A DNA stretch of 64,000 nt from Escherichia coli (GTDB taxonomy: Bacteria > Pseudomonadota > Gammaproteobacteria > Enterobacterales > Enterobacteriaceae): the NCBI RefSeq assembly GCF_003334355.1, contig NZ_QOWP01000005.1. One strand, written 5' to 3'. The notes beneath the pieces were generated by a model. That model worked only from the letters and a program-made list of their open reading frames with translations. It ran no database searches and was not told the origin of the DNA. Made by a program: the position numbers and the translations under genes. Below are positions 26,877-26,973 of the stretch, piece by piece; the first letter of the stretch is position 1; every line of letters begins with the position of its first letter.

Positions 26877-26973
26877 GCCTGATGCGCTACGCTTATCAGG
26901 CCTACAAGGGATTCGCAATTTGTTGAATTTGCAGAATTTGTAGGCCGGATAAGGCGTTTACGCCGCATCCGGC
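26877..26973. repeat. BIME: two inverted REP elements flanking a ~34-bp AT-rich core
   Basis: GCCTGATGCGCTACGCTTATCAGGCCTAC ... GTAGGCCGGATAAGGCGTTTACGCCGCATCCGGC; near-identical architecture at 55941..56036. Confidence 0.85.

Follow-up and report, generated by a model that had tools for sequence, protein, structure and literature searches.

RIP elements, a name that we take to be a synonym of BIME-1, carry an IHF site between two REP sequences. The BIME-1, RIP and RIB descriptions go back to Gilson et al. 1991, Boccard & Prentki 1993 and Oppenheim et al. 1993, as cited in PMC3333891 and PMC2817692, and secondary statements in the literature mention that binding of IHF to the inter-REP sequence has been published. 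A topological or structural role has been proposed for BIMEs, REPs are described as known mRNA stabilisers and attenuators (PMC3333891, PMC10100675), and terminating ribosomes are reported to stall where a REP lies within 15 nt of the stop codon (PMC12306157, which cites Liang et al. 2015).

We analysed two such REP pairs in a stretch of 64,000 nucleotides (hereafter the window) from Escherichia coli, which is 98.9-99.8% identical to K-12 MG1655 over 2,650,000-2,690,000, yet is not K-12. Judged by their sequence, the two REP pairs belong to the BIME-1 (RIP/RIB) family of enterobacteria, and we consider this identity secure. The explanation as a whole, in which we place high confidence, is that these BIME-1 copies carry a linker that would be bound by IHF and REP hairpins that would lie in 3' untranslated regions, and that they were inserted independently and are decaying.

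The two REP pairs and their setting

The features of the two loci are given below in window coordinates.

Between the annotated sseB start (26838-26840, minus strand) and the pepB stop codon (26982-26984, minus strand): locus of element 1
26877-26905, plus strand: Y-type REP of element 1, inverted, CTAC end toward the linker; exact 29-mer common to element 2 and equal to the family consensus
26906-26939: L linker of element 1, 34 nt, AT-rich, with TTGAATTTGCA; found by the linker-only HMM from other species, E 5e-7
26916-26928, minus strand: IHF-like site of element 1, ATTCAACAAATTG; 8/9 positions of WATCAANNNNTTR
26940-26973, plus strand: Z-type REP of element 1, intact, GTAG start toward the linker; matches the L-linker family consensus
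Between yphH (stop 55879-55881, plus strand) and glyA (stop 56079-56081, minus strand), whose 3' ends converge: locus of element 2
55899-55920: GC-rich hairpin AAGGCTTCC-CGAA-GGAAGCCTT, next to element 2 but not part of it; folds as RNA at -14.8 kcal/mol, z = -3.7
55922-55941, plus strand: left outer flank of element 2, family consensus about CTGATGACAAACGCAAAATT; 75% identity to the flank consensus, inside the HMM alignment, missing from empty-site strains
55942-55970, plus strand: Y-type REP of element 2, inverted; the exact 29-mer
55971-56005: L linker of element 2, 35 nt; linker-only HMM E 5e-13
55981-55993, minus strand: IHF-like site of element 2, ATTCAATATATTG; 8/9 positions of WATCAANNNNTTR
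56006-56039, plus strand: Z-type REP of element 2, degenerate in this strain; six substitutions relative to the MG1655 allele
56040-56065, plus strand: right outer flank of element 2, family consensus about ATGAACAAAGCGCACTTTGTCAGC...; 81% identity to the flank consensus, inside the HMM alignment, absent at empty sites

Both elements are extragenic. Element 1 lies 8 nt past the pepB stop codon, and element 2 lies 39 nt past the glyA stop and 60 nt past that of yphH. The MG1655 RefSeq annotation of this region holds no repeat features, hence no curated element name, and a promoter scan called none at the pepB-sseB or yphH-glyA locus. Genomic SELEX located a binding peak for RNA polymerase sigma-70 holoenzyme in the sseB-pepB spacer (26841-26981), with no -35/-10 assigned (PMC3946193). 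Upstream of sseB there is a direct duplication of ~325 bp (25260-25778 and 25762-26065; 82-90% identity), whose stretches, assigned by Rfam to IS128 (25422-25630) and ryfA (25762-26065), thus look like paralogous sRNA/toxin loci. On the plus strand, an ORF of 429 aa (56040-57329) runs fully antisense to glyA with its ATG directly after the decayed REP; most probably it is only the shadow ORF of a gene with strong codon bias.

The original prediction had held that the two loci share a left REP, a similar AT-rich core and a right REP. The left REP GCCTGATGCGCTACGCTTATCAGGCCTAC was found exactly, with 0 mismatches, at 26877-26905 and 55942-55970 only in the 64-kb window and gave 0 matches in shuffles, so that the first of these statements was borne out by an identical 29-mer. 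The core TTGAATTTGCA was likewise exact only at 26923-26933 and 55988-55998. Taken alone the 11-mer is weak evidence, since with one mismatch allowed 21/100 shuffles equalled the window; both copies occupy the same register of a gap-poor alignment of the two elements. The pairwise alignment that had been proposed as a check gave 85.9% identity over REP-linker-REP. On the right REP a correction applies: a Z-type REP is present at both loci, but that of element 2 is degenerate in this strain. The span of the second element, first given as 55941-56036, was corrected to 55942-56039.

The linker-only HMM, made from the copies of other species, returned just these two matches in the window (E 5e-13 and 5e-7; next E > 1), and therefore the view that only two paired-REP loci in the window contain the central motif was correct. 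The REP inventory agreed with this. The other paired-REP locus (34224-34405) has four REPs with short linkers and lacks the core, as do the single REPs at 45601 and 63445. In addition, the right REP of element 1 is unlike the Z REPs of the 34224-34405 cluster, which read GTCGGATG...CCGAC.

The BIME-1 family and its IHF-like site

Species-representative genomes were scanned for head-to-head REP pairs with the pattern ATCAGGCCTAC-N30-38-GTAGGCCKGA, which gave at least 120 loci; those listed belong to E. albertii, E. whittamii and E. coli-like species, to two species of Pseudocitrobacter, and in a few cases to Citrobacter or other enterics. A full-length family HMM was built without the window, from 78 copies found in E. 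albertii, E. whittamii, Pseudocitrobacter and others. It matched element 1 at 26869-26977 (120.5 bits, E 1e-36) and element 2 at 55922-56065 (135.6 bits, E 2.4e-41), and the Y-REP 29-mer of both loci is the consensus of these 78 copies. At both loci the REPs stand in inverse orientation with their GTAG/CTAC ends toward the linker (...GGCCTAC-linker-GTAGGCC...), there is one unit without tandem reiteration, and the linkers of 34 and 35 nt are of the long L type by which BIME-1 is recognised. Thus, the assignment to the RIP subclass (REP-IHF site-REP) was supported, both loci matching the BIME-1/RIP/RIB family HMM.

The family consensus runs about 20-30 nt beyond both REPs, with the flank sequences listed above for the Y and Z sides; in part, each flank is the inverted repeat of the other. 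They probably correspond to the motifs called 'A' and 'B' by Gilson et al. 1991. Element 2 has conserved flanks and forms a unit of ~145 nt (about 55922-56065), and element 1 is without either outer flank and adjoins pepB directly.

Their 85.9% identity, including a 29-nt exact block, might be taken to mean that the two elements arose from one another by local duplication or gene conversion, or that they resemble each other by chance. However, element 1 is clearly nearer to the consensus of the other species (92.9%) than to element 2 (85.9%), and element 2 is itself nearer to that consensus than to element 1, if only marginally (86.7% vs 85.9%). Their flanks also differ, more than 100 copies occur in other genomes among the matches listed, and the REP 29-mer was never matched in shuffles. 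Because of the consensus distances, the differing flanks and the many copies elsewhere, we regard the two as independent members of a dispersed family and not as mutual duplicates. Local duplication or chance has become vanishingly improbable, being effectively refuted by the consensus distances, the shuffles, the family HMM and the copies elsewhere.

BIME-1 of E. coli type also turned up on short contigs, of 261-720 bp (L082, L106, L107 and L110), assembled for Desulfosporosinus, Alkalicoccobacillus and Methylobacterium frigidaeris. The linker on L110 is identical to that of the MG1655 yphH-glyA copy, and these assemblies are likely to be contaminated with E. coli.

Within the family, the core GCAATATATTGAATTTGCA was present at a fixed offset in 106/134 linkers among the matches listed, and linker length was exactly 35 nt in 91/134 of the matches listed. 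Information reached 1.5-2.0 bits across CAAT.T.TTGAAT vs 0.3-0.9 bits at the linker edges (106 copies among the matches listed), and the core is therefore held tighter than its surroundings, across genera.

The consensus for IHF is WATCAANNNNTTR. Alignment of the two cores did find a match to it, which the original prediction had named as the point on which its RIP reading turned: the minus strand of both linkers reads ATTCAA-N4-TTG at the same aligned position, agreeing at 8/9 positions, with the mismatch at position 2. This A-to-T mismatch is family-wide, YAANNNNTTGANW occurring in 87/106 copies and the strict consensus in 1/106 among the matches listed, and the positions of the site are nearly invariant over the 106 family copies among the matches listed. 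One-mismatch matches numbered 68 in the window, vs 46 expected by chance. Since such a match is uninformative alone, the support for the IHF site comes from family conservation and the literature. The literature searched yielded no usable IHF ChIP data naming pepB, sseB, glyA or yphH, and the two sites are predicted ones, at which the published binding to inter-REP sequence suggests that IHF would bind. We propose that IHF may bind and bend the L linker at its conserved TTCAA-N4-TTG core, between two cruciform-prone REPs, which would be palindromes of the kind reported to bind gyrase and DNA polymerase I.

Population distribution, decay and transcript ends

The pepB-sseB copy was found in 5425/5426 complete E. 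coli genomes, as well as in E. whittamii and another Escherichia species, and within E. coli it is all but fixed. The yphH-glyA copy was present in 1933 of the 5426 genomes (~36%). The remaining ~64% have a span of 267 bp where the window has 401 bp. Strains 536 and O157:H7 have an empty site, at which a few bases stand in place of the entire flank-REP-L-REP-flank block of ~137 nt. Of the complete E. coli genomes with a filled site, 602 share the element 2 allele of the window, BL21 and C41 among them, and about 1293 have the intact MG1655-type allele. In a Pseudocitrobacter genome the glyA stop is followed by about 20 nt and then by the bidirectional terminator hairpin, without a BIME-1 between them, an order that weakly suggests that the empty glyA site is ancestral.

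Both copies showed signs of decay. In element 1 the Y REP hairpin folds at -12.9 kcal/mol (z = -2.9) and the Z REP hairpin at -21.3 kcal/mol (z = -4.9). The Z REP hairpin of element 2 has only -6.4 kcal/mol (z = 0) in the window, and folding predicts that the six substitutions abolish it. One change in the decayed REP, C-to-T at 56027, generates a perfect 7-bp inverted repeat GTTCATG/CATGAAC (56022-56045). This repeat reaches from the remnant of the REP into the right flank, and in the RNA fold it is predicted to make a new hairpin. At the pepB-sseB locus a 10-nt direct repeat, GTTTACGCCG, lies at 26956-26965 in the Z-REP loop and again at 26980-26989, over the final codons of pepB and its stop. 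In strains NMBU_W05E18 and EC17CM12, and at locus L061, the 24 nt between these copies are deleted and half of the Z REP is lost; in these alleles the pepB stop is left inside half a REP, and the core TTGAAT has become TTGGAT. The loss of the Z hairpin, the deletion alleles at pepB-sseB and the absent glyA copies argue against strong selection on the IHF site or the hairpins, and because of this decay and polymorphism we consider selection on the two copies to be weak. In origin we see the elements as non-autonomous repeats, each with an insertion and a decay of its own. The pepB-sseB spacer of Kosakonia cowanii (locus L086, 6775-6969) holds three REPs with short linkers and without the L core; it carries another REP set, and the site is therefore REP-occupied across genera, with differing arrangements.

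These data bear on whether the elements do anything for the host at all. They may be selfish or neutral REP doublets, REPIN- or MITE-like, that were moved in trans by a REP-associated tyrosine transposase and have no function at these loci. The presence/absence polymorphism of the glyA copy speaks for this, as does the fact that the ~137-nt block missing in 536 and O157:H7 is a full unit with conserved flanks, the consensus extending beyond both REPs into partly inverted repeats. The independent decay, in the Z REP of the window and in the deletion and core mutations at pepB-sseB in some strains, points the same way, and cleavage and recombination of BIMEs by TnpA-REP in vitro is recorded in PMC3333891. 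On the other hand, the linker core is far better conserved than its edges across Escherichia and Pseudocitrobacter, which fits a bound site better than uniform drift, and IHF binding to the inter-REP sequence has been published. Conservation of the linker might still serve the propagation of the element itself, or the linker may simply be young. We hold an absence of host function to be a tentative possibility, and a largely selfish or neutral status to be a serious, non-exclusive rival: it concerns origin and selection, not identity, and is compatible with the reading of both loci as BIME-1 copies.

With respect to that reading, both elements lie just downstream of minus-strand genes, pepB and glyA, and by their position they would be transcribed into the 3' untranslated regions of these genes. 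There the REP hairpins may hold back 3'-to-5' exonucleases or serve as attenuators; the whole-unit folds are strong (z = -5 to -6). The pepB REP is 8 nt from the stop codon and would fall inside the 15-nt range for stalling. PMC10100675 tabulates pepB with the transcripts upregulated by fluoride, in a merged table row together with REP183b; nothing usable on glyA REP mRNA stability was found in the literature searched. Position and folding are the grounds for all these RNA-level effects, which are put forward here as predicted ones. Family-wide, 65/76 assigned Y sides and 58/80 assigned Z sides have a 3' gene end toward the element, and divergent-promoter contexts account for 2/106, among the matches listed in both cases. 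A rule that the Z-REP side faces the upstream gene, true at both loci, was rejected, as the family matches listed follow no such rule.

At the glyA locus the GC-rich hairpin just outside element 2 is the probable stem of a terminator shared by yphH and glyA. On the yphH strand it is followed by TTTTTT in the empty-site strains 536 and O157:H7 and by TTGATG in filled alleles, and in the window (55899-55941) the T tract after the hairpin is replaced by TTGATGATC; the intrinsic terminator of yphH may therefore be weakened in BIME-carrying strains. A terminator scan called this hairpin in neither allele, filled or empty-site. Because it missed hairpin and T6 together in the empty allele, the statement on the terminator is based on reading the letters. 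On both strands the same scan called none at either element, and the REPs are not followed by T runs. Lying between the glyA stop and the shared terminator, and replacing the T tract on the yphH strand, the glyA BIME-1 might cause heritable differences between lineages in the stability and 3' end of glyA mRNA and in yphH termination, perhaps with an ES036-like sRNA made from the 3' UTR, a proposal that we regard as unlikely.

What matters functionally might instead be an RNA product, namely a small RNA of ES036 (CssrF) type derived from the pepB and glyA 3' UTRs and trimmed between the REP hairpins. The 43-nt consensus of Rfam RF02751 ES036 (CssrF) combines the L linker with GUAGGCCU, where the Y REP starts, and a short linker stem-loop appeared in every fold. 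ES036 also aligned to both elements on the minus strand, the mRNA strand of pepB and glyA, at 26898-26939 (29.7 bits, E 3e-4) and 55963-56005 (33.9 bits, E 2e-5). Both scores, however, lie under the gathering score of 37.6, so that ES036 membership was rejected, and at gathering thresholds Rfam placed no family over either element. A strand-specific RNA role would further predict a consistent orientation relative to the upstream gene, yet the family matches listed show none. Nothing usable on the function of ES036/CssrF was found in the literature searched. We consider it improbable that an RNA is the functionally relevant product of the two elements.

Comparison with known repeat systems

ES036 itself is a separate case: elements 1 and 2 are paralogous L motifs and not the ES036 locus. 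REPINs, the REP doublets mobilised by RAYT/TnpA-REP, resemble the two elements as inverted REP pairs that act as a unit and in their presence/absence polymorphism between strains. They differ in that the REPIN concept is a functional and evolutionary one, for the most part defined in Pseudomonas, and no RAYT gene was found within the 64-kb window.

BIME-2 elements, which consist of Y and Z2 REPs with short S linkers in tandem arrays and have strong gyrase sites, share the same REP palindromes, also arranged head-to-head. They differ in linkers of ~13 nt without L core or IHF-like site and in tandem reiteration, and for elements 1 and 2 this class was ruled out by linkers of 34-35 nt and by the single units. 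An arrangement of BIME-2 type occurs elsewhere in the window, in the iscR-trmJ spacer (34224-34405), as two tandem 91-nt units, each with a Z-type REP, a 13-nt linker and a Y-type REP; Rfam naRNA4 (RF02564) matched there on the minus strand at 34275-34346 with 72.2 bits vs a gathering score of 59.5.

Since BIME-1/RIP/RIB elements with an IHF site were described in the early 1990s, the observation is correct but already known, and it carries little weight as a discovery. The analysis adds that the unit is longer than REP-linker-REP, that the glyA copy is polymorphic and decaying, and that the pepB REP lies within ribosome-stalling distance. These local details could guide comparisons of expression between strains, and they leave the understanding of the BIME-1 family unchanged. 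As in BIME-1/RIP/RIB, a long, conserved L linker that holds an IHF-type site is enclosed by one Y and one Z REP, inverted relative to each other, as a single copy per locus that is extragenic and at 3' gene ends. There is no essential difference, and the local departures from this family are the decayed Z REP of the glyA copy and the pepB copy that is without the outer flank motifs.
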